Shown here piece after piece: positions 1-13,086 of a stretch of 13,086 nt of DNA (positions are counted from its first letter, which is position 1; each line of letters starts with the position of its first letter). Under the pieces are notes generated by a model. That model ran no database searches and had not been told where the DNA came from. It saw only the letters and a program-made list of their open reading frames with translations. Both the position numbers and the translations under genes were made by a program. Source of the stretch: a virus (Duplodnaviria; Heunggongvirae; Uroviricota; Caudoviricetes); the IMG/VR virus record IMGVR_UViG_2713896897_000017, positions 1 to 13,086 of that record; one strand, written 5' to 3'.

Positions 1-228
1 CGGCCTGATATTGCTGTACGGTGGGTTATTCCAGATTGCACCGTGGCTTATCCACTCAGAATTGAGCGCGTCGTCGGCCTCTGTTAGCCAGTGAGCACAC
101 AGAGCGTTTTTGTCGCTCGCTGCTGAATCCAGCCAGAATCCAAACTCAATATCCAGTGCATCAAAAAGCCAGAGCGGCGTTTGCCAGCAGTCCTTGTCGT
201 GTGCTGGCGTATTTGATTTGATAGTCAT
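1..228 (-). CDS. Phage N6-adenine DNA methyltransferase (phage Dam family), N-terminal 76 codons only; C-terminus lies beyond the window start
   Basis: Manual reverse-complement translation from ATG at 228: MTIKSNTPAHDKDCWQTPLWLFDALDIEFGFWLDSAASDKNALCAHWLTEADDALNSEWISHGAIWNNPPYSNIRP. Contains the NPPY catalytic motif and the WQTP...LF...EFGF...LD leader typical of phage Dam-type methyltransferases. Its ATG overlaps the ninB stop (ATGA). Open to the window edge. Confidence 0.7.
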   Translation of the reverse strand, partial: MTIKSNTPAHDKDCWQTPLWLFDALDIEFGFWLDSAASDKNALCAHWLTEADDALNSEWISHGAIWNNPPYSNIRP

Positions 229-671
229 GCAGCCTTCCCTTTTCGTTGTGACCATTCATACTCTCGCCGGGAGTCATCACTCCACCGCACGTTGCGCTCT
301 GAGCCGAACCAGAACATGATTTCGATAAGCTCAGTCATGCTGGCCTTTCGCATTTTGCTGGTACGCACACCAAGCATGACAACGCCACCGTCGATACCAG
401 GCGCACTTCTTTGCTCCATTTTTTTGGTCTTAAGCCACAGGGCAGTGAACAGATCTTTCCAGTCTTCCGGCGCAAGTCTCTCTCCATGCCAAAGCACCTG
501 ACGTGATACGTCCTGCAATAACGCCCACATAAGGCGGTTTTGAGGATTACTCCGCTTTGGTTCTTTAATGTGGACTTCGTGAGGTGACTTGTCGTCGATG
601 GGAAGTGAGAGTATTGCGTCCATGGCATTGTTTCTGATTGCTTCGTTGCGAAGCATGTATATTTGCTTCAT
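225..671 (-). CDS. ninB: NinB (Orf-family recombination mediator)
   Basis: 148-aa ORF; recalled similarity to lambda NinB (conserved ...DQNR..W....DVSRQV.WHG... and C-terminal WSD....EW.....AA), in the expected nin-region position downstream of the replication genes. Confidence 0.8.
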   Translation of the reverse strand: MKQIYMLRNEAIRNNAMDAILSLPIDDKSPHEVHIKEPKRSNPQNRLMWALLQDVSRQVLWHGERLAPEDWKDLFTALWLKTKKMEQRSAPGIDGGVVMLGVRTSKMRKASMTELIEIMFWFGSERNVRWSDDSRREYEWSQRKGKAA

Positions 672-693
672 CGTTACCTCGACTTAATTCTGC

Positions 694-1020
694 TCATTGA
701 TACCCTCTCTCACTTAATCGCGCCCACGCTTCGTTAAACTCTTCTCGGGTTGCGCCGGATTTTCTTTCTTCAAACATCAGGCATTCGCTGATGTCTCCCC
801 ATGACTTTGGTCGCTTGTCAGCGAACAGGTCATCCCATTCGAATACCCAGCGGCCTGATTTTCGGTAGTGGTAAATGGTCAGCCATGTTGTGCTGTTCGC
901 CGGATACCCATAGAGAACTTCGACTTTTTGATCACGGTCTTTATGCTTTTTCAGCAGGATAAAGCCAGCAACCAGCGAAGCTCCGGCAAGAATGACGATT
1001 GGTATTTGCCAGTCAGCCAC
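694..1020 (-). CDS. Hypothetical small membrane protein (single N-terminal transmembrane helix) in the ren position
   Basis: 108-aa ORF; N-terminus IPIVILAGASLVAGFILL is a predicted TM helix followed by a KKHKDR positive patch; GGAGAG Shine-Dalgarno just upstream. Sits between the helicase and ninB. Confidence 0.5.
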   Translation of the reverse strand: MADWQIPIVILAGASLVAGFILLKKHKDRDQKVEVLYGYPANSTTWLTIYHYRKSGRWVFEWDDLFADKRPKSWGDISECLMFEERKSGATREEFNEAWARLSERGYQ

Positions 1021-1036
1021 GATTTACTCTCCCCCA

Positions 1037-1067
1037 AATAAAAAGGCCTGCGATTACCAGCAGGCCT
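1037..1067 (-). terminator. Rho-independent terminator (tR2-like) between the helicase gene and the nin-region genes
   Basis: Perfect 8-bp inverted repeat AGGCCTGC (1044-1051) / GCAGGCCT (1060-1067) with an 8-nt loop; on the minus strand the hairpin is followed by TTTTATTT (complement of 1037-1044). Confidence 0.6.
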
Positions 1068-1092
1068 GTTATTAACTCAGTGATGTAGATGG

Positions 1093-2469
1093 TCATACGT
1101 CAGCCCCTTGTGCATATCGTCTGCCACGCGCAGCAGGTGCATTTGATGTTGTGCAAATCTGTCTGGCTTCATCCTGGTCACATGCAACAAAGTGTCCGTT
1201 GCAGAACCGCTGGTAAACCGTACCAAGCGAGCCAAAACGGTTTTTCGTCACGATGATTTCAGCAAATGGCGCGGCGCTACTGTTCTCGTCATATACCGCT
1301 TCCCGATAGAGCATGATGATTGAGTCTGCGTCCTGCTCAATGCTTCCTGAATCACGCAAATCTGCGTTTGTCGGGCGTTTGTTTGGTCGCTTCTCAACAT
1401 CGCGCGAAAGCTGACTCAGGGAGATAACAGGCGTTTTCAGGTCTTTCGCCATCGCCTTAAGGCTTCCTGAGATGTGAGCAATTGCGAGGTCGTTGCGGTC
1501 TGCTTTCGGCTTCTCAATAAGGCCAAGATAATCCGCCATGATGAGTGACAGGTTTGGATTTTCCTGTTTGTGCCGCTCTGCGATTGAGCGAATTTCTTCT
1601 ACCGATAACCGCGAGGCATCGACTACCCATACATCCAAATCTGCAAGCTGACTCATGCCGTTAGCAACACGCGCCCAGCCTTCGTCATCCATCGATGCAG
1701 GATTTCGCAGTACGCTAACCGACATCCTCCCGGCGTTGGCAATACTTCGCTCTGCAATCTGCAATGCGCTCATTTCCATTGAGAAAATCAATACTCCGCG
1801 CCGGACGTCAGAACCAGGAATAACACGACTTGCAACGCCTTCGGCAATCTTCAGCGCCAGTTCGGTTTTTCCCATACCAGGACGAGCGGCGATAATCACC
1901 AAGTCTTCTGCGTTCATCCCTCCGGTGATGGCGTCAAGTTCTTCGATTCCGGTCTTCAGGGTATCTGACTCTTCTCCGTTCCTCAGACGCCTGTCAAGCG
2001 TGTCAGTGTAGTCAGTAATGATTTCCCCTAACCGTACAGGTTTAACCTCGTCACGGGGCTTTCTGATGGCTGAAAGACGCTTTACAAGCTCGTCCATCGC
2101 CTGACTCGATGCGTCGATGGTTCCGCTCTGAATTGGTTCACGCATTTCATCCATGATTTCCAGCACCAGGCGGCGGTGATAGTTATCCGCGACCATTCCG
2201 GCATATCCCTTCAGGTTTGCGGCACTCGGGCAGTTTTTGCTGGTCATCAGGATTGAGGTGAAATGCTCCTCTCCGCACGCCTCGGCAACCATCAGAGCGT
2301 CGATTAGGTTCCTGTTTCTCGCCTGCTTACGGATAACTTCGAAGGCTTTCCGGTAGAGCGGAATTGAAAACGCTTCCGGCTCCAGCGTTGCAAGAACGTC
2401 ACTGGCGGTTGGAGTTAATCCACCAATCAGCAGGCCACCGATAACGCTCGCTTCGATATCCTGTCTCAT
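1093..2469 (-). CDS. Replicative DNA helicase, DnaB family (P22 gene-12-like)
   Basis: 458-aa ORF with Walker [18 protein letters not shown] and overall DnaB-like C-terminal RecA-fold region; start overlaps the stop of the O-like gene (coupled). Confidence 0.85.
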
Positions 2470-3287
2470 GCAATCCCCCTGTCTGCAAACTTCCCTTCCC
2501 GAACTCCCGTTAACGAGTCTTCTCTCAGCAGGTAATCAAAATCAGCCGTCCAGCCCGTGTCGTTGTCTCCGAAGTAAAACGGCTTGGCCTGATGCACAAA
2601 CGCCCTGACATACGCTCTGAAACCGTCCACGTTTGGCGTTTTCAGTTGCGGGATGATTTTCTTCAGGCGGCGTTTGCGTTTCTCGTTGACCGCAACAGCG
2701 TGTGGCAGTCTGTCACCGACTTCGGTGTTGTAGGCGTTCAGGAAGGATTCGTAGTCGATTCGTTCTGCCTTTCGACGTGCAGGTTTAACCCGCCCATCGC
2801 CTCCCCCATTGGGGGGTAGGGGGGTATTTGTATTTATTGTCTTTTGTATATTGTCTTTTGTGTTTAGCTGACTTGGCTTATACCCATTAGCCGACTCGGC
2901 TAATGTTTTATTAGCTGTTTTAGCTAATGTTAAGCTGTCCTGGCTAATCCACTGCGAAACCACCTTGTTCACTCCGATTTTCACGCCATCAGCAATGAGG
3001 AATTTACGCTCAATAAGCTGGCGCTTGGCTGCGCAAACATGAGTGTGATGAATACCTGTCATGGCTGCTATCTGCGTGTTTGTGAGTCGATCCATCGGCT
3101 TATTGAATCCGTATGTCTTGCGCATGATAGCGAGCATCACCTTCAACTGCCGGACAGTTAAATCAGCCATCAGCAGACTGTCGGTAATCTCGTTAGCAAC
3201 GCGCATGAAACCATCTTCGGTATCTGCCACGCGATGCTCCACGACCTCCAGTTGAGGCCTGTAATCAGCTAACTTAACGACGCCCAT
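2466..3287 (-). CDS. Replication initiator, lambda O-like (P22 gene-18-like)
   Basis: 273-aa ORF; the N-terminal domain aligns by eye with lambda O ([34 protein letters not shown] versus lambda ADLTKRQFKVLLAILRKTYGWNKPMDRITDSQLS); a low-complexity linker ([10 protein letters not shown]) is encoded over the repeat region. Confidence 0.85.
2836..2950. repeat. Candidate replication origin inside the O-like gene: tandem AT-rich direct repeats plus TTAGC/GCTAAT iteron-like repeats
   Basis: ATTGTCTTTTGT occurs twice (2836-2847 and 2850-2861); TTAGCTG or GCTAAT motifs recur at about 2864, 2887, 2899, 2911, 2921, 2943; preceded by a G tract (2811-2824). In lambda the ori iterons lie inside O. Confidence 0.5.
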
Positions 3288-3435
3288 GTTTCACTCCTGC
3301 TTTGGCTAGTCTGTAAACACCAACAAGGCTCTCTGCGAACGCCTTGTTATTTGCTGCGGCTACCACTAATCCCTCAGGTGAATCAGGGTGTCGAATCTCT
3401 TCTTTTTCCTGGTATTTCTTACGACGTTTTGTCAT
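3274..3435 (-). CDS. Hypothetical 53-aa protein between cII and the O-like gene
   Basis: Manual translation: [58 protein letters not shown] Shine-Dalgarno 6 nt upstream of the ATG; the stop overlaps the first codons of the O-like gene. Below the size cut-off of the supplied ORF track. Confidence 0.4.
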   Translation of the reverse strand: MTKRRKKYQEKEEIRHPDSPEGLVVAAANNKAFAESLVGVYRLAKAGVKHGRR

Positions 3436-3469
3436 AATTACTCCTGTGGATTGATCCAGTCTTTCTACA

Positions 3470-3751
3470 TCAGGCCTCGAAGAATTCGCCGTTCTTCGGG
3501 GCTTTTTCTTTTGTCAGGTAATCGGCAAGCCGCTTAGTCAGTTCAGCCATTTCATCGTCTTCGATTCCGTATTCCAGAACAGCCAGCATCATGCTTACCT
3601 GCGAGAAGAAACCATTCTTCCATCGGCTTACCTGGTATTCCGGAACTCCCATCGCGCGAGCGAATGTCTTCTGCCCCATCAGTGCCAGTTTGTTCAGCAA
3701 GGCTGACTCGATGCGAGCCGCTTTCTTGCTTTTAGTTGCAATAGTACCCAT
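3470..3751 (-). CDS. cII: CII-like transcriptional activator
   Basis: 93-aa ORF; recalled similarity to lambda CII (RIESALLNKLA...SRWK...FSQVSMMLAVLEYGIEDDEMAEL versus lambda RIESALLNKIA...SRWK...PKFSMLLAVLEWGVVDDDMARL); AAGGA RBS. Confidence 0.85.
   Translation of the reverse strand: MGTIATKSKKAARIESALLNKLALMGQKTFARAMGVPEYQVSRWKNGFFSQVSMMLAVLEYGIEDDEMAELTKRLADYLTKEKAPKNGEFFEA
3474..3510 (+). terminator. Rho-independent terminator antisense to the cII 3' end (oop-RNA-like)
   Basis: 11-bp stem GCCTCGAAGAA (3474-3484) / TTCTTCGGGGC (3492-3502) with one G-U pair and a 7-nt loop, followed by TTTTTCTTTTG. The T tract exists only on the plus strand. Same position as the lambda oop terminator. Confidence 0.6.
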
Positions 3752-3758
3752 ACATAAT
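3726..3758 (+). promoter_or_regulatory. PRE-like CII-dependent promoter (TTGC-N6-TTGC plus -10)
   Basis: TTGCTTTTAGTTGC at 3726-3739 is the CII-binding repeat, 13 nt before CATAAT (3753-3758); same architecture as lambda PRE, within the first codons of cII and pointing towards cI. Confidence 0.55.
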
Positions 3759-3828
3759 TTCCTTAATGATTAGATAGAGTTGGCTTCGCAAAGAAACGCA
3801 AAACCATAGAGATTTTTTTTCTGGTAAT

Positions 3829-3860
3829 GCCCTTTTTCAGGGCGGGGATGTATAAGAGCG
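3829..3860 (-). promoter_or_regulatory. nutR (boxA and boxB)
   Basis: The minus strand reads CGCTCTTAT (boxA, complement of 3852-3860) then GCCCTGAAAAAGGGC (boxB, complement of 3829-3843), which I recall as identical to lambda nutR boxB; located between cro and cII. Confidence 0.8.
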
Positions 3861-3868
3861 GGAATGTC

Positions 3869-5221
<1,353 letters not shown>

Positions 5222-5247
5222 TCCTCACCTCGATTTCGATAACCAAA

Positions 5248-5290
5248 AAACAAACTATTTTCCGTTTAAAAACAATGGAGTTTGTTTTTC
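5248..5290 (+). terminator. Weak candidate terminator downstream of the cI operon
   Basis: 9-bp stem AAACAAACT (5248-5256) / AGTTTGTTT (5279-5287) followed by TT; the loop is long (22 nt, AT-rich), so this is weak. Confidence 0.25.
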
Positions 5291-5302
5291 ACGCCCCTTT
5301 TT

Positions 5303-5339
5303 ACAATATTTCTTGTTTACAACATACAATCTTTCTTGT
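5303..5339 (+). promoter_or_regulatory. Left operator region (434-type operators) with PL
   Basis: ACAA-N6-TTGT sites at 5303-5316 (ACAATATTTCTTGT) and 5326-5339 (ACAATCTTTCTTGT), upstream of nutL and N; exact -35/-10 assignment uncertain. Confidence 0.65.
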
Positions 5340-5385
5340 AATTTTAAGCCATCAGCAGGACGCACTAACCACCATTGAAGGTGAG

Positions 5386-5415
5386 GCTCTTAAAAATTTA
5401 GCCCTGAAGAAGGGC
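5386..5415 (+). promoter_or_regulatory. nutL (boxA and boxB)
   Basis: GGCTCTTAA (5386-5394) followed by GCCCTGAAGAAGGGC (5401-5415), recalled as identical to lambda nutL boxB; lies in the N leader. Confidence 0.8.
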
Positions 5416-5525
5416 AGCATTCAAAGCAGAAAGCTTTGAGTAGCGCGAAATGCAGCTGCAAGACAGCAACCGTGGAGATAAGCATCACGGCGCGTTACTC
5501 AAAGCTAACTGACAGGAGAATCCAG

Positions 5526-5852
5526 ATGGATGCACAAACACGCCGCCGCGAACGTCGCGCAGAGAAACAGGCTCAATGGAAAGCAGCAAATCCCCTGTTG
5601 GTTGGGGTAAGCGCAAAGCCAGTTAACCGCCCTATTCTCTCGCTGAATCGCAAACCGAAATCACGAGTAGAAAGCGCACTGAATCCGATAGACCTTACAG
5701 TGCTGGCTGAATACCACGAACAGATTGAAAGCAACCTGCAACGTATTGAGCGCAAGAATCAGCGCACATGGTACAGCAAGCCACGCAGTGAAATGGGTGT
5801 GACTTGTATTGGTCGCCAGAAAATGAAATTAGGCAGCAAACCACTTATTTGA
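5526..5852 (+). CDS. N: Antitermination protein N (lambda type)
   Basis: 108 aa from the internal ATG at 5526 (MDAQTRRRERRAEKQAQWKAANPLLVGVSAKPVNRPILSLNRKPKSRVESALNPIDLTVLAEY...), close to lambda N including the arginine-rich boxB-binding motif; AGGAG RBS. Confidence 0.9.
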   Translation: MDAQTRRRERRAEKQAQWKAANPLLVGVSAKPVNRPILSLNRKPKSRVESALNPIDLTVLAEYHEQIESNLQRIERKNQRTWYSKPRSEMGVTCIGRQKMKLGSKPLI

Positions 5853-5860
5853 GGTGATAT

Positions 5861-5947
5861 ATGGAAGAAGAATTTGAAGAGTTCGAAGAGCATCCGCAGG
5901 ATGTGATGGAACAATACCAGGACTATCCGTATGACTACGACTATTGA
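5861..5947 (+). CDS. Hypothetical 28-aa highly acidic micro-protein
   Basis: Manual translation MEEEFEEFEEHPQDVMEQYQDYPYDYDY; GAGGTG RBS 4 nt upstream; its 3' end overlaps the ral start. Below the ORF-track size cut-off. Confidence 0.3.
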   Translation: MEEEFEEFEEHPQDVMEQYQDYPYDYDY

Positions 5948-6131
5948 TAAGAATCAATGGTGTGGACAATTCAAACGATGCAATGGATGCAAGCTGCAAT
6001 CGGAATGCATGGTTAAGCCTGAAGAAATGTTTCCTGTAATAGAAGATGGGAAAAATGTCGATAAATGGGCAATACGAACTACGGCAATGATTGCCAGAGA
6101 ACTTGACAAACAGAAAAACAAGGCTGCCTGA
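5931..6131 (+). CDS. ral: Ral (restriction alleviation protein)
   Basis: 66-aa ORF MTTTIDKNQWCGQFKRCNGCKLQSECMVKPEEMFPV..., nearly identical to lambda Ral as I recall it. Confidence 0.85.
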   Translation: MTTTIDKNQWCGQFKRCNGCKLQSECMVKPEEMFPVIEDGKNVDKWAIRTTAMIARELDKQKNKAA

Positions 6132-6265
6132 TGGTGGCCTTTATTTTTGGCATAAACAACAGAATAAACACTGCACTGTGTATTCATTCCAACGAGTGAA
6201 TACACGGAGCAATGTCGCTCGTAACTAAACAGGAGCCGACTTGTTCTTATTATTGGAAATCATCT

Positions 6266-6296
6266 TTGCCCTCCAATGTGAGGGCGATTTTTTATC
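6266..6296 (+). terminator. Rho-independent terminator between ral and the next gene
   Basis: Stem TTGCCCTC (6266-6273) / GAGGGCGA (6280-6287, one G-U pair) with loop CAATGT, followed by TTTTTTAT. Confidence 0.6.
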
Positions 6297-6313
6297 TATG
6301 AGGATATGAATAG

Positions 6314-6682
6314 ATGTCAAACATCAAAAAATACATCATTGATTACGACTGGAAAGCATCAATAGAAATTGAAATCGACCATGACGTAATGACAGAGGAA
6401 AAACTTCACCAGATTAATAATTTCTGGTCAGACTCTGAATACCGACTCAATAAACACGGCGCTGTATTAAATGCTGTATTAATCATGCTGGCGCAACATG
6501 CTCTGCTTATAGCAATTTCGAAAGACTTAAATGCATATGGTGTTGTTTGTGAGTTCGACTGGGATGATGGAAATGGTCAGGAAGGATGGCCTCCAATGGA
6601 TGGTAGCGAAGGAATAAGAATTACCGATATTGATACATCAGGAATATTTGATTCAGATGATATGACTATCAAAGCCGCCTGA
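6314..6682 (+). CDS. Hypothetical acidic 122-aa protein
   Basis: ORF with strongly acidic composition (D/E-rich C-terminal third, DWDDGNGQEGWPPMDGSEG...DSDDMTIKAA) and a central hydrophobic stretch AVLNAVLIMLAQHALLIAIS; no family recognised. Confidence 0.5.
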   Translation: MSNIKKYIIDYDWKASIEIEIDHDVMTEEKLHQINNFWSDSEYRLNKHGAVLNAVLIMLAQHALLIAISKDLNAYGVVCEFDWDDGNGQEGWPPMDGSEGIRITDIDTSGIFDSDDMTIKAA

Positions 6683-6757
6683 GCGCGGCTTTACCGCATA
6701 CCAATAATGCTTCACGAGAGGCATTTTCGTTATGAAATCAAATATAAGGAGTTACCC

Positions 6758-6892
6758 ATGATGCACTTTCAGCTCGCGGGTAGCGGCGTCATGTCCGCTT
6801 TCTACCCGCACGAATCTGAATTATCACGCCGAGTTAAACAATTAATCAGAGCAGCAAAGAAACAACTGGAGGCGTTATGCGCAATGAAATAG
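6758..6892 (+). CDS. cIII: CIII-like protein (FtsH inhibitor protecting CII)
   Basis: 44 aa from the ATG at 6758 (MMHFQLAGSGVMSAFYPHESELSRRVKQLIRAAKKQLEALCAMK); resembles the lambda CIII core (AG...ESLLERITRKL); AAGGA RBS 7 nt upstream. Confidence 0.6.
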   Translation: MMHFQLAGSGVMSAFYPHESELSRRVKQLIRAAKKQLEALCAMK

Positions 6893-7029
6893 CCATCAAT
6901 CACCAGATGCTTCGTGCTGCACAGAACAAAGCAGTAATAGCCAGATTTATTGGTGATTCAAAAATGTGGCTTGAAGCAAATAAAACGATGAAATCAGCTA
7001 TCAACCTTCCGTGGTATCGCAGGAAATGA
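6877..7029 (+). CDS. kil: Kil-like small protein
   Basis: Manual translation MRNEIAINHQMLRAAQNKAVIARFIGDSKMWLEANKTMKSAINLPWYRRK (50 aa); the ATG overlaps the end of cIII, as kil does in lambda; the FIGD.KM motif is reminiscent of lambda Kil. Confidence 0.45.
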   Translation: MRNEIAINHQMLRAAQNKAVIARFIGDSKMWLEANKTMKSAINLPWYRRK

Positions 7030-7133
7030 GTTTTACAGATAACTGGTCAGACGAAGAATTTATTCGTCAGATGAACAAAATTCTCAATCAGCACAAAGAA
7101 CAGGAGAAAGATGATGATTCTGACTCTGAATGA
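7026..7133 (+). CDS. Hypothetical 35-aa acidic micro-protein
   Basis: Manual translation MSFTDNWSDEEFIRQMNKILNQHKEQEKDDDSDSE; ATG overlaps the kil stop (ATGA); overlaps the next gene by 23 nt. Confidence 0.3.
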   Translation: MSFTDNWSDEEFIRQMNKILNQHKEQEKDDDSDSE

Positions 7134-7422
7134 TAAGCGTGAAATATCGCAAATAATCGCAAGTTTTACTGATGAAGATTACGAACGAATTAACAGTGAA
7201 GTTGATCGCCTCTGCAAACGTTGCGACCCAATAAGCGAAATGCTTCGCTCATATAAACCAGATGAACACACTAAGGATGCTATCGACTGGCTGGAAGATG
7301 ATGACTGTAACTATCAGGAAAAAGCCGCTGAATGGTTCTGGGATGCAATAACCGAAAGAGTTAAGGCTGAATATGCCTTCGCAATATTCAAACGCAGACA
7401 CATTTTTGGAGAAGCTGCATGA
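7111..7422 (+). CDS. Hypothetical 103-aa protein immediately upstream of recT
   Basis: ORF with AGGAG RBS 4 nt upstream; its stop overlaps the recT start (ATGA); no family recognised, and it is not lambda Gam by recalled sequence. Confidence 0.55.
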   Translation: MMILTLNDKREISQIIASFTDEDYERINSEVDRLCKRCDPISEMLRSYKPDEHTKDAIDWLEDDDCNYQEKAAEWFWDAITERVKAEYAFAIFKRRHIFGEAA

Positions 7423-8201
7423 GCAATATCGTTGAATTCGTTAAACAGCAAGAGCAGTTATTCTGCGGAGCATTGACTGAACAGACGGTGATATGGGCTA
7501 AGGAAAGCCAGTTTGCAATTCAGTATTTCCAGAAAAACGATTACCTGGCTAAAACAGCACTGGCAAATCCAACCAGCGCACAGAACGCCATCATCAATGT
7601 TGCGGCGATCGGCATTACCTTAAACCCGGCTAGCAAACTGGCTTATCTGGTTCCGCGCGACGGCATGGTGTGCCTTGATATCAGTTACATGGGATTACTT
7701 CATCTTGCGCAATCGACAGGCTCAATTAAGTGGGGACAATGCAAACTGGTGTACTCAAACGACACCTATGAATCAAACGGCCTTGATTCAGCACCAACCC
7801 ACAAATACAACGCATTTGGTGAGCGAGGCTCTATTGTTGGTGGTTATTGCACGGTTAAAACAGCAGATGGTGACTACCTCACTGAAGAAATGAGTCTGGC
7901 AGAAATTAAAGCTGTGGAAGCAACGAGCAAGGCAAAGAATGGACCGTGGAAGACATTCTGGGAAGAGATGGCGCGTAAAACCATAGTTAAACGCGCCAGC
8001 AAATACTGGCCTAAAGCCCAGCGACTGGATAATGCCATTCACCTGCTTAACGAAGATGAAGGTATGCATCAGGAACCAGTTATGCCGCACAAATCAGAGG
8101 AAGATATCCGCGAAGATGAACGGAAACGCCAGCAGGAAATATGGATAAAGCACAACTTCTTTGTGATGAAATGGCCTAGGCTGAAACCATGGATGATTTG
8201 A
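7419..8201 (+). CDS. recT: RecT-family single-strand annealing recombinase
   Basis: 260-aa ORF with the conserved RecT/Red-beta C-terminal signature GPWKTFWEEMARKTIVKRASKYWP (compare Rac RecT GPWVTHWEEMAKKTAIRRLFKYLP). Confidence 0.8.
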   Translation: MSNIVEFVKQQEQLFCGALTEQTVIWAKESQFAIQYFQKNDYLAKTALANPTSAQNAIINVAAIGITLNPASKLAYLVPRDGMVCLDISYMGLLHLAQSTGSIKWGQCKLVYSNDTYESNGLDSAPTHKYNAFGERGSIVGGYCTVKTADGDYLTEEMSLAEIKAVEATSKAKNGPWKTFWEEMARKTIVKRASKYWPKAQRLDNAIHLLNEDEGMHQEPVMPHKSEEDIREDERKRQQEIWIKHNFFVMKWPRLKPWMI

Positions 8202-8303
8202 AGCGATATTTTGCAGAAGCATATCGCCTGACATCTGGAATGAAATTGCGGCAGAACGTACAAGCCATTTACATAGAATGCAAAGCGAAACTGGAGGTTG
8301 CCA

Positions 8304-8786
8304 GTGAGCAAACTGTATGAAATTGCCAATGAATACGCAAAGCTGATGGATTTAGATTTAGAGCCAGAGATGATTGCTGACACAATAGAAGGCATGGAAG
8401 GAGAATTTACCGATAAAATAGAGCAACTTCTTGCCATTATTAAAAATGAGTCTGGTTATGCTGAACGCCTCAAGGAAGAGGCAAAGTCACTGAATGAAAG
8501 AGCAGCAGTAATTCAAAATAAGATTGATAGCATTATGACGTATATAGCGTCATCGCTTGAAATGGTTGGAAAGAAAAAGATTCGAGCAGGTATTCACCAG
8601 GTAACAATCCGCAAACCGTCAGAAACTGTAGAAATCATCGACTCAAGCGCCCTTCCTCCTGAATACGTTGAGTTCGAAACGACAATTAAAGCCGACAAAC
8701 TGGCAATCAAACACCAACTAAAAGCAGGAATAAATATCCCCGGTGCTCAACTCAAAGTTGGGAAACCTTCACTTCTTATCAAATAA
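8304..8786 (+). CDS. Sipho_Gp157-like protein (commonly found next to phage recombinases)
   Basis: 160 aa from GTG at 8304 with GGAGG 6 nt upstream (track ORF starts at TTG 8298); coiled-coil-rich N-terminus and overall resemblance to the Gp157 family. Confidence 0.55.
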   Translation: MSKLYEIANEYAKLMDLDLEPEMIADTIEGMEGEFTDKIEQLLAIIKNESGYAERLKEEAKSLNERAAVIQNKIDSIMTYIASSLEMVGKKKIRAGIHQVTIRKPSETVEIIDSSALPPEYVEFETTIKADKLAIKHQLKAGINIPGAQLKVGKPSLLIK

Positions 8787-8797
8787 CGGTATCGCCT

Positions 8798-9112
8798 ATG
8801 AAAAAGACTCCTTGGGAGAAATGGGAAGTCGATTTCTTACGCGAAGTAGCGGCGACAATGCCAGTTGAAGTTATCGCTGAAAAACTGGAAAGGACTGAAA
8901 AAGCAGTAATGGCGAAAGCAACAAGGATTGGCGCTGACATTGTTAGCCGACTTCGTGGAAGACGCTGGACAAGAGCCGAAGTATCACTTTTCGGTAAGTT
9001 CTCCGCAGAAGAAATAGCAATTGCAACCTGCCGCTCAATTTATTCAGTAAGAGCTATGCGATACAAGCTAAAAAAACTCGATGAAGAAAGAGCAGGCATA
9101 CGAATAAATTAA
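8798..9112 (+). CDS. Hypothetical 104-aa protein with an internal tandem repeat (possible DNA-binding)
   Basis: ORF; two roughly 40-aa units starting W..(W)EV.F and W.RAEV.LF, each followed by E(E)IA...R......A...K, suggest a duplicated helical module. Confidence 0.5.
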
Positions 9113-9128
9113 CAAAGAGGAATTTACC

Positions 9129-9296
9129 ATGAGAGGACTTGCATACAACCCCGGCATTCTTCCTGCAGAAATGATTATTCGCCAACGCGTAAAGCCAATG
9201 CCATCGAGAGAGGAATTGCTTAAGAGAAAGAGTTTCGGTTCTGTTAATGACAACAAATATCTGAATGCGATGTTGCGCAAAGGAGGCAACCAATGA
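9129..9296 (+). CDS. Hypothetical 55-aa protein
   Basis: Manual translation [55 protein letters not shown]; AAAGAGG RBS about 8 nt upstream; its stop overlaps the next gene start (ATGA). Confidence 0.4.
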
Positions 9297-9646
9297 GCAA
9301 GATTGACTATCAGGCACTGCGTGAAAAGGCAGAGAAAGCAACGTGTGGTGTGTGGTCGCTCGAATATGGAGAGAGCCGATTTGATTGTGATGATGCGCTA
9401 ATTCATCGTGACGTTGTTGGATATCTTCCCATTTGCAGAATTGAAGGAGCGCATCCTGAAAGCGGTTTCGATGAAGATTTCCAAATGGAACAGCAGGCCA
9501 ATGCTGAATTCATCGCCGCAGCCAATCCGGCTACTGTGCTGGCACTACTGGATGAAAACGAAAGACTGTGTCGCGAGCTGATAGCTCGTAATGGTGAGAT
9601 TGAAGGGCTTCGGAAGTGGGCAGAAGAACGGGAGATGCAACCATGA
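9293..9646 (+). CDS. Ead/Ea22-like protein (paralogue 1)
   Basis: 117-aa ORF with the conserved block [24 protein letters not shown] characteristic of the Ead/Ea22 family. Confidence 0.65.
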
Positions 9647-10089
9647 TGACTTTTACCAGCGAACAATTAGCTACCTTACGTAAGATAGCGCAACAGGCAA
9701 CACAGGGCGAATGGCGTGCATTCATCTCGCCGGACACTGGTACATATGCGGTGCATACGCCGGGGGATGAACGTTGCGGAGACATTATCAAATGGCCTGG
9801 CTTTGACGACCAGAAAAATGCAGAGAACAACGCAGAATTTATCGCAGCTTTCAACCCTAAATTAGTGCAGACACTGCTGGATGAACGGGAAAGAAACCAG
9901 CAATACATCAAATCACGCGACCAGGAGAACGAGGATATTGCGCTAACGGTAGGGAAGCTGCGCGTTGAGCTTGAGGAGGCAAAATCAAAACTCAACGAGC
10001 AGCGTGAGTATTACGAAGGTGTTATCTCGGATGGGAGTAAGCGTATTGCTGAACTGGAGAAGTTACGAAACATGCTGTCCAGAATGTAA
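9643..10089 (+). CDS. Ead/Ea22-like protein (paralogue 2)
   Basis: 148 aa from the ATG at 9643 (overlaps the previous stop); shares NNAEFIAAFNPKLVQTLLDERER with the upstream paralogue; C-terminal coiled-coil. Confidence 0.65.
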   Translation: MMTFTSEQLATLRKIAQQATQGEWRAFISPDTGTYAVHTPGDERCGDIIKWPGFDDQKNAENNAEFIAAFNPKLVQTLLDERERNQQYIKSRDQENEDIALTVGKLRVELEEAKSKLNEQREYYEGVISDGSKRIAELEKLRNMLSRM

Positions 10090-10130
10090 CCATGAATTTA
10101 AAACAGATTTCGTGTATTGAGGTATAACAA

Positions 10131-11051
10131 ATGACCACTATTACCAGAGAACAAGCTCTGAAAATTATTGAGGCAGCCGATGAGGTTATTAGTGCGTTTG
10201 CCGGAACTAACGAGGATGTTCACCCTGGTAGCGAAAACATGCTACGCCTGTGGGATGACCTGAATGACCGTTACGCGCCGCCGGAAGTTGTGCGTGAGCT
10301 GGCACGGATTGCACTGGCATCGCTGGAAGCAGAGCCGGTGGTTTACATGTGGGATAGCGAAAGAAAAGATATTGATGCCCCCGGGTATTATCGGACTGAG
10401 CATTTAGTGTTCGCTGAGAGTAGTGTTAAGCAATGGGGAGGGCGAGTTGTTCCACTTTACACCGCACCGCCAGCGACGGTAATACAGGCTGATGTCGCGC
10501 AAGCAATTGAAAATCTCAAGCAGAAGTTAGTGGAATGCAATTGCTATAGCTACTGCGCAGATGCAGTTAAAGGCATAGAGGGGGCTTGCCGTGCTGTTAT
10601 CTATAGCCAAGTCGATAATCCACCAGCATCTGGTAGCCAGGCTGCTGAATCCAATCGCAGTAATGAGTGGACTGGCAATCCTGATATTGATAACGCCATC
10701 ATCATGCTCGACCGCATAGATACGGCGGAAAGTTACGATGATGACCGTATTGAGGCTGTTAAGGTTGTTTTGCGTAGACTGGCTGGCAACTCTCCGGTAA
10801 CTCCGGATGGTTGGATAAGCTGTAGTGAGCGAATGCCAGAAATGGGAGAGCGACAATGCTATGTGTTAGCAGCAGACTTTATAAACAACTACCCACCAAA
10901 CATCCCCAACACTCAGGTCGGCGTATATGGCGACTGGTTTAATGATGGCAATCCCACTTGGGATGACGGTGATGGCGAAGACCTGTATCTCAAAGAGGTA
11001 ACCCACTGGATGCCCCTACCAGAGCCACCGCAGGAGGTTAACCGTGGCTAA
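10131..11051 (+). CDS. DUF551-domain protein
   Basis: 306-aa ORF; the C-terminal region W.SCSERMPE...VL...........VGVY.DW......W.DG......EVTHWMPLPEPP matches the DUF551 pattern common in enterobacterial prophages; the N-terminal two-thirds are unassigned. Confidence 0.6.
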   Translation: MTTITREQALKIIEAADEVISAFAGTNEDVHPGSENMLRLWDDLNDRYAPPEVVRELARIALASLEAEPVVYMWDSERKDIDAPGYYRTEHLVFAESSVKQWGGRVVPLYTAPPATVIQADVAQAIENLKQKLVECNCYSYCADAVKGIEGACRAVIYSQVDNPPASGSQAAESNRSNEWTGNPDIDNAIIMLDRIDTAESYDDDRIEAVKVVLRRLAGNSPVTPDGWISCSERMPEMGERQCYVLAADFINNYPPNIPNTQVGVYGDWFNDGNPTWDDGDGEDLYLKEVTHWMPLPEPPQEVNRG

Positions 11052-11328
11052 CCTGCAACTTGCCGTTAACGGTGAATACTTCGATGCCATGATTCGCGGA
11101 GAGAAAACAGAAGAATATCGCCTGTGTAATGACTACTGGAATAAGCGAATTATGTTCCGCGAGTATGACCGCCTGATTATCACAAAGGGATATCCGAAGC
11201 GCGATGATTCCAGCCGCAGAATAGACGTCCCGTATGACGGATATGAAATCAAGACAATCACACATCCGCACTTCGATGATAAACCGGTAAAGGTATACGC
11301 GATAAAGGTAAATATCGGCACTGAATAA
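11044..11328 (+). CDS. ASCH-like (PUA-fold) small protein
   Basis: 94-aa ORF from GTG; the N-terminus YFDAMIRGEKTEEYRL fits the ASCH GxKxxExR signature (compare E. coli YqfB FQDDILAGRKTITIR). Confidence 0.45.
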   Translation: MANLQLAVNGEYFDAMIRGEKTEEYRLCNDYWNKRIMFREYDRLIITKGYPKRDDSSRRIDVPYDGYEIKTITHPHFDDKPVKVYAIKVNIGTE

Positions 11329-11353
11329 CAATCCGCACAACACAAGGTCAAGA

Positions 11354-11632
11354 ATGTTCAGAGTGATTTACCCTAACACCTGGTACGTCGACCACCACGG
11401 CACTCCCTGCAAAATCCTGCGTTCCACTCACAACAAAGTTCACTACATCCGAAAAGGCAGAACATGTATCGCCAGCATGTTCCGCTTTAATCATGACTTT
11501 GAACCTGTGAATAAAGCTGACGCAGATCGGATAGCTGAAGAGATCGAAACAGCAGAACACATTAAGAAGTTACGTTCCATGCGCTCAAAAAACAGAGGTA
11601 ACCATGGAATCACACAGCCTCACACTCGATGA
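11354..11632 (+). CDS. Hypothetical 92-aa protein
   Basis: ORF with a basic C-terminus; no family recognised. Confidence 0.4.
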   Translation: MFRVIYPNTWYVDHHGTPCKILRSTHNKVHYIRKGRTCIASMFRFNHDFEPVNKADADRIAEEIETAEHIKKLRSMRSKNRGNHGITQPHTR

Positions 11633-11701
11633 GGACTGTTCATTTCTCAATGGTATCCAAACCTACTGCAATAATACCAATTCAATCAATGGAGATTCCA
11701 A

Positions 11702-12049
11702 GTGGAAGAAGAAATCTTCACTCGTGAAGAGGCAGCATCGTATCTGAAGGTAGACAAAGGCACTATCACGCAGTGGATACGAAGTGGACGACTTCAGGCC
11801 GCAAAGATAAATCCAGATAAACCTAAAAGCCCATATCGCATTTGCAAGTCAGACTGCATTGCGGCGCTTAAGTCTGTGAGACACAATAGCGCGGTGAATG
11901 CGGTTGATGTGCAGGAGGTTAAAGCATGTCAATCAAACTACGCGGTGGCACATGGCACTGCGATTTCGTCGCGCCAGATGTTTCAAGAGTTAGACGCTCT
12001 CTTGAAACATCGGACAAAATGCAAGCGCAAGAACTTCACGATCGTCTGA
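11702..12049 (+). CDS. xis: Excisionase (P22 Xis-like, HTH_17/AlpA-type)
   Basis: 115-aa ORF from GTG with a GGAG RBS; FTREEAASYLKVDKGTITQWIRSGRL is a typical excisionase HTH; overlaps the int start; length close to P22 Xis. Confidence 0.65.
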   Translation: MEEEIFTREEAASYLKVDKGTITQWIRSGRLQAAKINPDKPKSPYRICKSDCIAALKSVRHNSAVNAVDVQEVKACQSNYAVAHGTAISSRQMFQELDALLKHRTKCKRKNFTIV

Positions 12050-13086
12050 AAGCAGAGGCGTGGAGAGTAAAAAATCTCGGGGAATCTCCGAAAAAGCTAT
12101 TCAAGGAAGCCTGCATACGGTGGCTGCGTGAGAAATCGGATAAGAAGTCCATTGATGATGACAAGAGCATTATATCGTTCTGGATGTTGCACTTCAGAGA
12201 AACCATTCTCTCTGACATAACAACAGAAAAAATAATGGAGGCGGTAGACGGGATGGAAAACCGCCGCCATCGCCTGAACTGGGAGATGAGCCGGGACAGG
12301 TGTTTGCGGCTTGGCAAGCCAGTGCCGGAGTATAAACCAAAGCTGGCAAGCAAAGGAACGAAGACGCGGCATCTGGCAATACTTCGCGCTATTCTCAATA
12401 TGGCTGTTGAATGGGGATGGCTTGACAGGGCGCCAAAAATATCAACACCACGCGTTAAGAATGGACGAATCAGATGGCTTACAGAGGAGGAATCGAAGCG
12501 CCTGTTTGCAGAAATTGCTCCTCATTTCTTCCCTGTGGTCATGTTTGCAATCACGACAGGCCTTCGCCGTTCCAACGTTACAGACCTTGAGTGGTCACAG
12601 ATCGATCTGGATAAGAAAATGGCATGGATGCACCCTGATGAAACAAAAGCTGGCAATGCGATCGGAGTTCCTCTTAACGAAACCGCATGCCAGATATTAA
12701 GAAAACAGCAGGGGCTCCATAAGAGATGGGTATTTGTCCACACCAAACCTGCCTACCGAAGCAACGGAACAAAAACAGCAGCGGTAAGGAAGATGAGAAC
12801 CGACAGCAACAAGGCATGGAAGGGAGCGTTAAAGCGGGCAGGCATTAGCAACTTCCGCTTCCATGACCTGAGGCATACCTGGGCAAGCTGGCTGGTTCAG
12901 TCCGGTGTCTCTCTTCTTGCACTTAAAGAGATGGGAGGATGGGAAACTCTCGAAATGGTTCAAAGATATGCCCATCTTTCAGCCGGGCATCTCACCGAGC
13001 ACGCGAGCAAAATCGATGCGATTATAAGTCGCAATGGCACAAATACGGCACAAGAGGAGAACGTGGTTTACTTAAATGCGAGGTAA
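11926..13086 (+). CDS. int: Tyrosine integrase, P22 Int type
   Basis: 386-aa ORF; the N-terminus ...SLETSDKMQAQELHDRLKAEAWRV and the C-terminal catalytic region FRFHDLRHTWASWLVQSGVSLLALKEMGGWETLEMVQRYAHL align by eye with P22 Int as I recall it; the stop codon is the last triplet of the window. Confidence 0.9.
   Translation: MSIKLRGGTWHCDFVAPDVSRVRRSLETSDKMQAQELHDRLKAEAWRVKNLGESPKKLFKEACIRWLREKSDKKSIDDDKSIISFWMLHFRETILSDITTEKIMEAVDGMENRRHRLNWEMSRDRCLRLGKPVPEYKPKLASKGTKTRHLAILRAILNMAVEWGWLDRAPKISTPRVKNGRIRWLTEEESKRLFAEIAPHFFPVVMFAITTGLRRSNVTDLEWSQIDLDKKMAWMHPDETKAGNAIGVPLNETACQILRKQQGLHKRWVFVHTKPAYRSNGTKTAAVRKMRTDSNKAWKGALKRAGISNFRFHDLRHTWASWLVQSGVSLLALKEMGGWETLEMVQRYAHLSAGHLTEHASKIDAIISRNGTNTAQEENVVYLNAR

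Follow-up and report, generated by a model that had tools for sequence, protein, structure and literature searches.

Does a recT gene that stands without a phage exonuclease belong to an unusual recombination module whose partner lies elsewhere, or to one that was assembled without a nuclease? The question is raised by a 13,086-nt stretch of tailed-phage DNA (IMG/VR record IMGVR_UViG_2713896897_000017, positions 1 to 13,086; hereafter the window), in which an earlier note, made from the letters alone, had found recT but no nuclease, and had judged the arrangement either unusual or completed by a gene outside the window. The reading we favor, with a probability of about 0.8, is that the locus is a Rec module of the HK140/mEpX1 type that is exonuclease-free by design, in which recT has been damaged and the preceding 103-aa gene (p103) may encode a Gam-fold protein.

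The recT block and its relatives

Every reading frame described in the earlier note was recovered at the same position in the ORF list, and the features of the block are collected in Table 1. The window, whose single Chi site is uninformative, contains a complete early-left lambdoid operon bounded by cI (4188) and int (11926-13086), and on the source contig host proA/proB follow directly after the int end of the prophage. An exonuclease immediately outside the window on that side, a possibility raised in the earlier note, is therefore excluded. No nuclease domain emerged when the ORFs from 5931 to 11051 were scanned against Pfam and PHROG, and the precomputed Pfam matches, which cover all genes called on the source contig, include none either, bearing out that recT here lacks a phage exonuclease. 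Its immediate neighbors are, as previously described, a small uncharacterised protein (p103) and a Gp157-family protein.

Table 1. Positions in the window of the features of the recT block
Feature	Position	Strand	Description
kil-orf35 junction			orf35 ATG overlaps kil stop
orf35	7026-7133	+	35-aa micro-ORF between kil and p103
p103	7111-7422	+	acidic, all-helical, 102/103 aa; first gene of the Rec module
p103-recT junction			p103 TGA overlaps recT ATG 7419 as ATGA
recT, ancestral extent, disrupted	7419-8320	+	aligned with the intact recT genes of mEpX1, Gally, Kapi1 and S87
recT ORF as now read	7419-8201	+	260 aa = 241 native + 19 out-of-frame residues
Lesion 1, one A missing	8141/8142	+	window GGAAATATGG; relatives GGAAATAATGG or GGAAATAACGG
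Lesion 2, TAG in restored recT frame	8177-8179	+	relatives have CAG; nearest variant L081
43-aa ORF	8189-8320	+	remnant of native RecT C-terminal domain, in original frame
gp157 ribosome-binding site GGAGG	8293-8297	+	inside recT 3' end, 6 nt upstream of GTG 8304
gp157	8304-8786	+	160 aa; overlaps ancestral recT end by 17 nt
104-aa tandem helix-turn-helix protein	8798-9112	+	last conserved gene of block; phrog_11492, phrog_323

The genes of the block, in the order kil, orf35, p103, recT, gp157 and the gene for the 104-aa helix-turn-helix (HTH) protein, are tightly packed, and the block is 92-98% identical to that of phages HK140, mEpX1, Gally and Kapi1, which have the same gene order; nucleotide identity to these four across the block is 92-93%. 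No nuclease was found in the annotated left operons of these four phages, and no gene of the lambda Exo/YqaJ or RecE/DUF3799 type adjoins recT in either the complete left operon of the window or the annotated relatives; exonuclease genes of such types do adjoin p103 in other phages. Since the complete genomes of HK140, mEpX1, Gally and Kapi1 share the exonuclease-free block, the absence of an exonuclease is neither unusual nor the sign of a partner lying outside the window. By sequence, we identify the region as a lambdoid prophage's homologous-recombination (Rec) module, of the HK140/mEpX1 type. At least 265 of the 5426 complete Escherichia coli genomes carry it, and its composition is nearly constant: p103 followed by recT is present in all 81 related loci compared, gp157 also in 80, and the 104-aa HTH gene after gp157 in 79. 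A scan of species-representative genomes returned one locus only, in an Enterobacter prophage, which carries the same block with 53% identity in p103.

In the description of HK140 by Zheng, Casjens, Davidson, Amundsen and Smith (Genome Res 2025, PMC12315714), the module pairs a RecT-type annealase (SAP-4) with an anti-RecBCD protein of the MuGam type and includes neither a nuclease nor an SSB; of 246 lambdoid Rec modules, they report 84 as nuclease-free. Among lambdoid phages, annealases that lack a dedicated exonuclease are common, and the design has already been published.

The window resembles HK140 and mEpX1 in possessing p103, recT, gp157, the 104-aa HTH gene and orf35 (a CDS in the Kapi1 and Louie annotations), with neither nuclease nor SSB, and differs from HK140 in its recT, where a frameshift and a nonsense codon leave a SAP of 260 aa. 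The P22 block (arf, erf, abc1, abc2) likewise combines an annealase with anti-RecBCD function, without a phage exonuclease, between kil and the ea genes; however, its proteins are unrelated, and Erf occupies the place that RecT has here. Lambda Red (gam, bet, exo) and phi80 (gamL, rec, exo) share with the window a small acidic first gene (about 100 aa), followed by an annealase, whose RecT core in phi80 is 49% identical to that of the window; they differ in that exo is absent here and the RecT C-terminus is unlike the Exo-linked type. The Rac RecE/RecT pair also has a RecT-family annealase (PF03837, TIGR00616), but its RecE/DUF3799 nuclease is absent here, and the window protein scores 89 bits against the Rac RecT equivalog cutoff of 296. 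Mu provides a further parallel, as its Gam/Ku-like end-binding protein is adjoined by a small tandem-HTH protein (phrog_323), although the gene order is reversed and Mu has no annealase. The 104-aa protein is homologous to this neighbor, Mu gp9 (BLASTP E 5e-5), which is encoded directly upstream of Mu gam.

The 104-aa protein gave no BLASTP alignment to P22 Abc1 and a tblastn search with it did not find P22, leaving the "Abc1" label on its Gally homologue unsupported. Located where P22 has arf, orf35 matches phrog_17766 (E 2e-15) and, with its first 20 residues, phrog_2123 "recombinase" (E 4e-10). We do not equate it with P22 Arf, to which it has a weak similarity (E 0.006, 6/12 identities over 12 residues), or with the ECP1 "recombinase", for which there was no support beyond, at most, the same 12-residue level. 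NCBIfam contains no match for orf35, p103 or the 104-aa protein.

Gp157 and p103 as putative anti-RecBCD proteins

The gene following recT was recognized in the earlier note as Gp157-like, and its identity and its end at 8786 stand; its start is revised from TTG 8298 to, most likely, GTG 8304, because a GGAGG lies 6 nt upstream and the relatives are 160 aa long. Gp157 matches Pfam Sipho_Gp157 (PF05565) over the whole profile (1-162 of 162) with 127.7 bits against a cutoff of 28.6 (E 6e-37), shows 98% identity to a 1450-sequence cluster, and matches phrog_253, "Mu Gam-like end protection" (E 7e-54). Pfam Phage_Mu_Gam (PF07352) aligned in register (29-147 of 149) with 17.2 bits, below its threshold of 28.3 (E 0.005). 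Comparison of narrow Gp157 and Mu Gam family alignments by hhalign remained at the null level, single-sequence hhalign was weak and not above null, Foldseek of the Gp157 AF2 model against the PDB yielded nothing significant, and the Gp157 profile gave chance matches only to PDB sequences. The protein would then be a distant relative of Mu Gam at best, and both the PHROG name "Mu Gam-like" and the "MuGam" label of Zheng et al. rest on remote-homology or fold methods. By homology, Gp157 probably corresponds to the "MuGam-type" anti-RecBCD protein of HK140, and rather than the mere neighbor of recT that it was first taken for, it belongs to the class recognized in PMC12315714 and in phrog_253, as the module's putative MuGam-type DNA-end-protection or anti-RecBCD component.

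The gene preceding recT, p103, belongs to phrog_3486 ("unknown function"; E 4e-59) and to no Pfam or NCBIfam family. The protein is 100% identical in 42 IMG/VR loci, and its family comprises about 54 representatives at 50% identity. In the loci compared, p103 invariably lies directly upstream of recT or exo: it heads RecT-Exo in ENT47670 and Midgardsormr38, Exo-RecT in phiEt88, and Exo in SEN22. Phage Dewey has a true lambda Gam in the p103 slot, ahead of the same recT-gp157 pair. Furthermore, p103 resembles GamS in size and acidity and may resemble it in predicted fold, although its AF2 model rests on 5 sequences and was confident in 1 of 5 models. Alignment of p103 with Gam by hhalign identified a 23-residue motif at equivalent positions (E 0.0017), with a score reached by none of 400 column shuffles and with negative controls at the null level. 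Beyond this motif and the predicted fold, the two proteins are not alike at the HMM level: among 35 members of the p103 family, the Pfam Gam HMM (PF06064) had no match at E <= 10 and no Pfam family recurred. A search of the p103 profile against PDB sequences returned chance matches only, without Gam, and Foldseek of the AF2 model against the PDB gave nothing significant. Neither phi80 GamL (null level by hhalign against the p103 family) nor P22 Abc2 (BLASTP E 3.1 against p103) proved to be a relative.

These observations suggest that p103 may be a divergent lambda-Gam-like inhibitor of the RecBCD nuclease. We tentatively propose, at odds that we place slightly below even, that RecBCD inhibitors of the lambda-Gam fold include a third sequence type, hitherto unrecognised, which p103 represents and which heads the Rec modules of enterobacterial lambdoid phages. 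The earlier note had named a Gam-like family as one that p103 might prove to belong to; the predicted fold, the shared motif and the slot interchangeable with Gam agree with that idea, and the Pfam Gam HMM does not.

A substantial rival, which we rate as quite possible though doubtful, is that p103 is no nuclease inhibitor at all, and instead an accessory to the annealase or nuclease (Arf-like as in P22, a loader or a chaperone) or an unrelated gene at a mosaic junction. Such a role is favored by the absence of any significant match to Gam, GamL or Abc2 at the HMM level, and by the translational coupling of p103 to whichever gene comes next, recT or exo; an inhibitory p103 would also be redundant in a module that already encodes a second putative anti-RecBCD protein, Gp157. 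Redundancy of this kind does occur, however, as Gam-type and MuGam-type proteins are found together in HK639 (PMC12315714), and the bona fide Gam standing in for p103 in Dewey, together with the GamS fold match and motif, speaks for the inhibitor. In the published scheme, HK140 itself is listed with MuGam and is not named among the two-inhibitor phages; p103 is proposed here as its second inhibitor.

Lesions in recT and the 43-aa reading frame

The RecT family assignment is secure at the level of profiles: Pfam RecT (PF03837) matches residues 31-214 with 115.3 bits against a cutoff of 24 (E 3e-33), and TIGR00616 gives 76.9 bits against a cutoff of 52.65. The annealing core of the truncated protein is, as judged from these residues, intact. 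The 3' portion of the gene is disrupted; the full ancestral 300-aa gene occupies 902 nt here and 903 nt in E. coli S87. The first lesion is a 1-base deletion that shifts the reading frame past codon 241, and none of the 81 related loci or of 296 E. coli genomes carries it; the second is a nonsense codon in the restored frame, near which lies a private A>C change at 8187. In 80 of the 81 related loci recT is one ORF of 299-303 aa, whereas in the window the full-length frame is interrupted. The adjoining genes show no damage and match widespread alleles at 98-100% identity. Programmed frameshifting was rejected as an explanation, because the shift is absent from all relatives.

Together, the deletion and the TAG cost the protein its last 59 residues, and recT is probably inactivated or crippled in vivo. 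Comparison of Gp157-linked with Exo-linked RecT proteins indicates what this part of the protein may do: their cores are 41-49% identical, and their C-termini are unrelated from about residue 215 onward. The lost residues thus appear to belong to a C-terminal part that varies together with the downstream partner gene, which points to a swappable domain that would dock RecT onto that partner, Gp157 or Exo.

The same lesions could be thought to be sequencing or assembly errors (deletion, TAG and A>C, all within 8141-8187), in which case recT would truly be intact and the module a fully functional one of the HK140 type. The differences are private to this sequence and found in no other genome, three of them fall within 47 bp while the remainder of the module is the common allele, and the exact 260-aa product is recorded on one contig only, from the single draft assembly GCA_001514595.1. 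We nonetheless regard error as unlikely, given that the lesions are of three different kinds, that the deletion falls outside any long homopolymer (AA to A), and that the substitutions are clean. Moreover, copies of the module have been disrupted elsewhere in other ways, for example by IS3 insertions in the prophages of E. coli HS and M15, and decay of the module is thus not unusual.

The damaged recT also accounts for the 43-aa ORF, for which the earlier note had offered two explanations, a short gene or the C-terminus of a frameshifted RecT. Over the final 43 codons of intact RecT the ORF is co-linear and nearly identical, and it matches the RecT family phrog_148 at profile positions 305-347; these alignments uphold the second explanation and not the first, and identify the ORF, at the level of sequence, as the cut-off end of RecT and not an independent gene. 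That it nevertheless acts as a functional small gene, for instance as the 43-aa partner-binding part of a split recT, made separately by translational re-initiation and still cooperating with the 260-aa core, we consider very improbable: ATG 8189 precedes the new recT stop (8199-8201) by 10 nt, a position that would permit re-initiation, and the peptide is nearly native in sequence, but the split arrangement occurs in no relative, the ATG has no clear upstream ribosome-binding site, some 16 native residues are lost between the frameshift and 8189 with the TAG among them in the native frame, and the ORF falls into no separate family, RecT being its sole profile match.

A model for the module and its implications

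In the mechanism that we propose, the genes of the module are transcribed from pL, RecT anneals single-stranded DNA, and the MuGam-type Gp157 would sit on double-strand ends and so deny host RecBCD access to them. The single-stranded substrate would be expected to come from host nucleases and helicases or from replication gaps. Nuclease-free modules such as Erf/Abc of P22 are thought to obtain single-stranded DNA likewise. For p103, the most likely role would be to block RecBCD directly, as a divergent protein of the lambda-Gam fold. Were p103 Gam-like, the module would possess two anti-RecBCD devices, as do Dewey (Gam and Gp157) and HK639 (GamL and MuGam).

Several corrections of annotation follow from the analysis: the 43-aa ORF and the 260-aa RecT are best annotated as one pseudogene, gp157 as starting at 8304, and the Gally homologue without the "Abc1" label. 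The exonuclease-free RecT module is in itself of little import, being a published design present here in a damaged copy. Of wider interest, a RecT C-terminus that serves as a swappable docking domain would be relevant to porting RecT recombineering between hosts, and p103 provides a concrete candidate for a new Gam-type RecBCD inhibitor, a class of protein that is useful both for recombineering and for studying defence systems that sense RecBCD inhibition.

If p103 is such an inhibitor, the consequences would extend across the phages that carry it. SEN22, classed by Zheng et al. (PMC12315714) as lacking an anti-RecBCD gene, would have one after all, and the modules of ENT47670, Midgardsormr38 and phiEt88, whose annotation offers no other candidate, would have an inhibitor as well. 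Modules of the HK140 type would then be equipped with two anti-RecBCD devices, a DNA mimic that binds RecBCD and a protein that binds DNA ends.

Gene content of the prophage and its host

The window comprises the immunity, replication and early-left regions of a lambdoid prophage (see table), and every open reading frame (ORF) described in an earlier note on this DNA was recovered in its ORF list. The sequence derives exactly from a draft assembly (GCA_001514595.1, contig BBVG01000031.1), in which the host genes proA and proB lie directly after int (positions 13292-15660). Identity of these flanking proBA genes to all E. coli genomes is only ~91%; the host is therefore probably a non-coli Escherichia relative, which would explain why no exact E. 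coli match to the window was found.

Coding features of the window
Feature	Position	Strand	Basis or context
ninB	225-671	minus	ORF list, Pfam and PHROG scans
DnaB-like helicase gene		minus	same scans
O-like replication gene		minus	same scans
cII		minus	same scans
cro (Cro-like protein)	3870-4085	minus	same scans
cI	4188-4820	plus	complete pL operon comes after
N-like gene		plus	pL operon
ral	5931-6131	plus	pL operon
DUF2528 gene	6314-6682	plus	pL operon
cIII	6707-6892	plus	pL operon
kil	6877-7029	plus	pL operon
orf35	7026-7133	plus	pL operon
p103 (103-aa protein)	7111-7422	plus	pL operon
recT as now read	7419-8201	plus	Pfam RecT, TIGR00616
gp157	8304-8786	plus	Sipho_Gp157, GTG start
104-aa gene	8798-9112	plus	phrog_323, phrog_11492
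DUF2737 gene		plus	pL operon
Two Ead/Ea22-like ORFs	9293-9646 and 9616-10089	plus	pL operon
DUF551 gene, ASCH gene, xis		plus	pL operon
int	11926-13086	plus	last gene, pL operon

Assignment of recT is certain (Pfam, 115 bits, E 3e-33; TIGR00616 above cutoff), and the stop of p103 does overlap its start, as previously described, in the sequence ATGA. The expected Gp157-like gene downstream was confirmed by a full-length Sipho_Gp157 match of its product (Pfam, 128 bits). Its start needs correcting and is most likely GTG 8304 rather than TTG 8298, since a GGAGG (8293-8297) lies 6 nt upstream and homologues are 160 aa long.

The two Ead/Ea22-like ORFs adjoin and overlap, the second starting at 9644 in the source-contig gene call; their homologue in an E. 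coli S87 prophage is flagged partial, and the pair may represent a duplicated or split gene. Five of the ~30 plausible window genes encode Ala-Ala C-termini (NinB ...GKAA, Cro-like ...GKAA, Ral ...NKAA, DUF2528 protein ...IKAA, p103 ...GEAA). A C-terminal E-[AV]-A is also the best conserved feature of the p103 family, and -AA ends recur in several RecTs (phi80, ENT47670, Enterobacter and phiEt88). Stop/start overlap (GCATGA) accounts for only some of these ends, which could constitute an ssrA-like degradation signal.

A common exonuclease-free module

The earlier note described a RecT without a cognate exonuclease, with partners either unusual or outside the window. Searches with Pfam, PHROG and source-contig Pfam bear out the first statement, identifying no nuclease domain in any operon gene, and the N-to-int operons of the annotated complete phages mEpX1, Gally, Kapi1 and HK140 likewise contain no exonuclease. 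A partner exonuclease beyond the window is contradicted by the completeness of the operon, with proA/proB following int, and by complete relatives that also lack one. Nor is the reading of unusual partners supported, as the same block is common in prophages and matches the published HK140 type. Over the stretch between kil and the 104-aa gene, both included, Kapi1, mEpX1, HK140 and Gally share 92-93% identity with the window, and at least 265 of 5426 complete E. coli genomes contain prophages matching it at up to 98%. In all 81 loci fetched via p103 this gene is followed by recT, with gp157 also present in 80 and the 104-aa gene next in 79; an Enterobacter prophage has the same four genes despite 53% p103 identity.

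In a survey of 325 lambdoid phages by Zheng, Casjens, Davidson, Amundsen and Smith (Genome Res 2025, PMC12315714), the nuclease gene is missing from 84 of 246 Rec modules, and a 'P22' functional class possessing only anti-RecBCD and SAP comprises 46 phages. SAP sequence type 4 is accompanied by neither a phage-encoded nuclease nor an SSB in HK140, and pairs with Exo in phi80 and RecE in Edno5; the anti-RecBCD protein that accompanies it is MuGam for HK140 and GamL for phi80 (PMC12315714). The exonuclease-free module is a known and common design, and the central claim of the earlier note is true but ordinary.

The recT-gp157 junction was also found to be an insertion target: phage Louie carries an HNH endonuclease gene between the two (L008 2940-3407). 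In E. coli HS and M15, IS3-family transposases break up the block. Upstream of the Rec module, an Enterobacter adelaidei prophage possesses a 408-aa ORF (L011 2561-3787), consisting mostly of ~30 tandem 9-residue units (SAATNTG plus two variable residues).

Lesions and divergence in the recT C-terminus

Intact recT is a single 300-303-codon gene in mEpX1, Gally, Kapi1 and the E. coli S87 prophage, and in alignment ends exactly where a 43-aa ORF of the window (8189-8320) ends, at 8318-8320. Relative to these sequences, the window lacks one A at 8141/8142 (GGAAATATGG versus GGAAATAATGG in relatives), carries TAG rather than CAG at 8177-8179 in the restored recT frame, and has a private A>C change at 8187. 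The present recT ORF therefore comprises 241 native and 19 out-of-frame residues. The 43-aa ORF had been read as either a short gene or the sign of a frameshifted RecT C-terminus; the shared stop and the deletion support the latter. Its only match is to the end of the RecT profile in PHROG (positions 305-347), which argues against a separate gene: on this alignment evidence, the ORF is the C-terminus that RecT has lost.

Across 8090-8250, none of the 296 complete E. coli genomes carrying the segment was identical (best 98.1%), and neither of the diagnostic 24-25-mers of the lesions was found in the 81 related loci. RecT is 299-303 aa long in 80 of these, while in the remaining locus the gene stops past codon 208, with 14 nt to the end of its contig; a single contig is the only recorded source of the exact 260-aa product. 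By these comparisons the lesions are private to the window sequence. The flanking genes are intact and of common allelic types: 42 IMG/VR loci share p103 at 100% identity, Gp157 matches a large cluster at 98% identity, and Gally and mEpX1 encode the same 104-aa protein (100% identical). The three changes may be errors of this draft assembly, but they differ in kind and long homopolymers are absent from all three sites, so that genuine, recent decay of the gene is favoured.

The N-terminal core is 41-49% identical between Gp157-linked RecTs (window type, mEpX1, Dewey, Enterobacter) and Exo-linked RecTs (phi80, ENT47670, Midgardsormr38), and from ~residue 215 to the end (last ~90 residues; window 8062-8320) the sequences of the two groups are unrelated. 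Codon 241, where the frame shifts, belongs to this divergent segment, whose last 59 residues are lost. The pattern suggests that the RecT C-terminus is a swappable partner-docking domain, or it may reflect a recurrent mosaic junction inside recT. The pattern fits findings on lambda Beta, whose C-terminal domain reportedly binds Exo and SSB (Caldwell et al. 2019). The divergence also fits the shuffling of partner-interaction domains suggested by Zheng et al. (PMC12315714).

Candidate functions of the RecT partners

In Pfam and NCBIfam p103 falls into no family, and in PHROG into no named one; an exhaustive HMM search yielded only ~54 clusters (50% identity), with a length of ~100 aa in nearly all of them. 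Its gene is always first in the Rec module and abuts or overlaps the start of the next, whether this begins recT-gp157 (window type), recT-exo (Cronobacter phage ENT47670, Erwinia phage Midgardsormr38), exoVIII-recT (Erwinia phage phiEt88) or a DUF3799 exonuclease gene (Salmonella phage SEN22). This slot corresponds to that of gam in lambda (gam-bet-exo) and gamL in phi80, and in Dewey it is a true Gam of the lambda type (phrog_259, E 1e-50), not p103, that precedes the same recT, gp157 and helix-turn-helix (HTH) genes. One short BLASTP match links p103 to Dewey Gam (TKDAIDWLEDDDCNYQEKAAEWF versus SKNAISKAFDDDVEFQERAAEFI, E 1e-4). Profile-profile comparison of 35 family sequences with a Gam alignment scored 21.9 (E 0.0017) at equivalent positions (57-79 versus 58-80), a score reached by 0 of 400 column-shuffled controls (null mean 11, maximum 20); comparisons with Gp157, run as negative controls, did not rise above the null. 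Motif and slot speak for a Gam-like family; a Pfam scan and PDB sequence-profile search for HMM-level Gam matches, Foldseek with the p103 model, and profile-profile comparison with phi80 GamL, all of which were empty, speak against it. We give roughly even odds to p103 being a divergent RecBCD inhibitor with the Gam fold, and this candidate family is the sole lead of some interest here. Given that HK140 is listed with MuGam and not named among phages carrying two anti-RecBCD proteins, and that SEN22 is classed as without an anti-RecBCD gene (SSB and nuclease, no annealase), p103 appears unrecognised in the available portion of the Zheng et al. scheme (PMC12315714).

SEN22 (L005 2586-4598) retains p103 and the 104-aa HTH gene, with recT-gp157 swapped out for the DUF3799 (RecE-like) exonuclease and a 189-aa protein (phrog_11517). 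Lambda-type Gam and phi80 GamL (L096 5555-5836) are almost identical over their first 15 residues (MNAYLTYDRIE..W; hhalign E 1e-6) and have nothing in common thereafter; this N-terminal helix may serve a function common to both or mark a recombination junction. Lying after kil and ahead of the annealase module, orf35 occupies the position of arf in P22. Residues 1-20 of its product match phrog_2123, which is labelled 'recombinase', and similarity to P22 Arf spans only 12 residues (E 0.006); orf35 could have arisen as a mosaic remnant or encode an Arf-like cofactor.

Gp157, a full PF05565 member, is linked to Mu Gam by a sub-threshold, in-register Pfam match (E 0.005, profile positions 29-147 of 149), the name of its PHROG family ('Mu Gam-like end protection', E 7e-54), its predicted architecture of one long helix and then a small beta domain, and the published MuGam label of the anti-RecBCD protein in the HK140 Rec module, a protein that we take to be the Gp157 homologue of HK140. 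Narrow alignments (single-sequence and profile comparison) did not reproduce the link and Foldseek with the Gp157 model found no match; therefore, we treat as likely only that Gp157 works like Mu Gam. The 104-aa tandem HTH protein (phrog_323, phrog_11492) is homologous to Mu gp9 (BLASTP E 5e-5), whose gene lies directly upstream of Mu gam (L009 1483-2326), whereas here the homologue lies directly downstream of the MuGam-like gp157. An HTH gene thus adjoins a Gam-type gene in Mu and in lambdoids, which are very different phages. The label Abc1 on the Gally homologue is not supported, no similarity to P22 Abc1 being found.

During lytic growth, transcription from pL would yield p103, RecT, Gp157 and the HTH protein, of which p103 would block RecBCD, RecT, from its family membership, would anneal ssDNA, and Gp157 would cap DNA ends. 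By analogy with other nuclease-free modules such as that of P22, ssDNA for RecT would be supplied by host nucleases or helicases, or by replication gaps. In the window prophage the genes flanking recT remain intact, and RecT without its C-terminal segment is probably defective in vivo.
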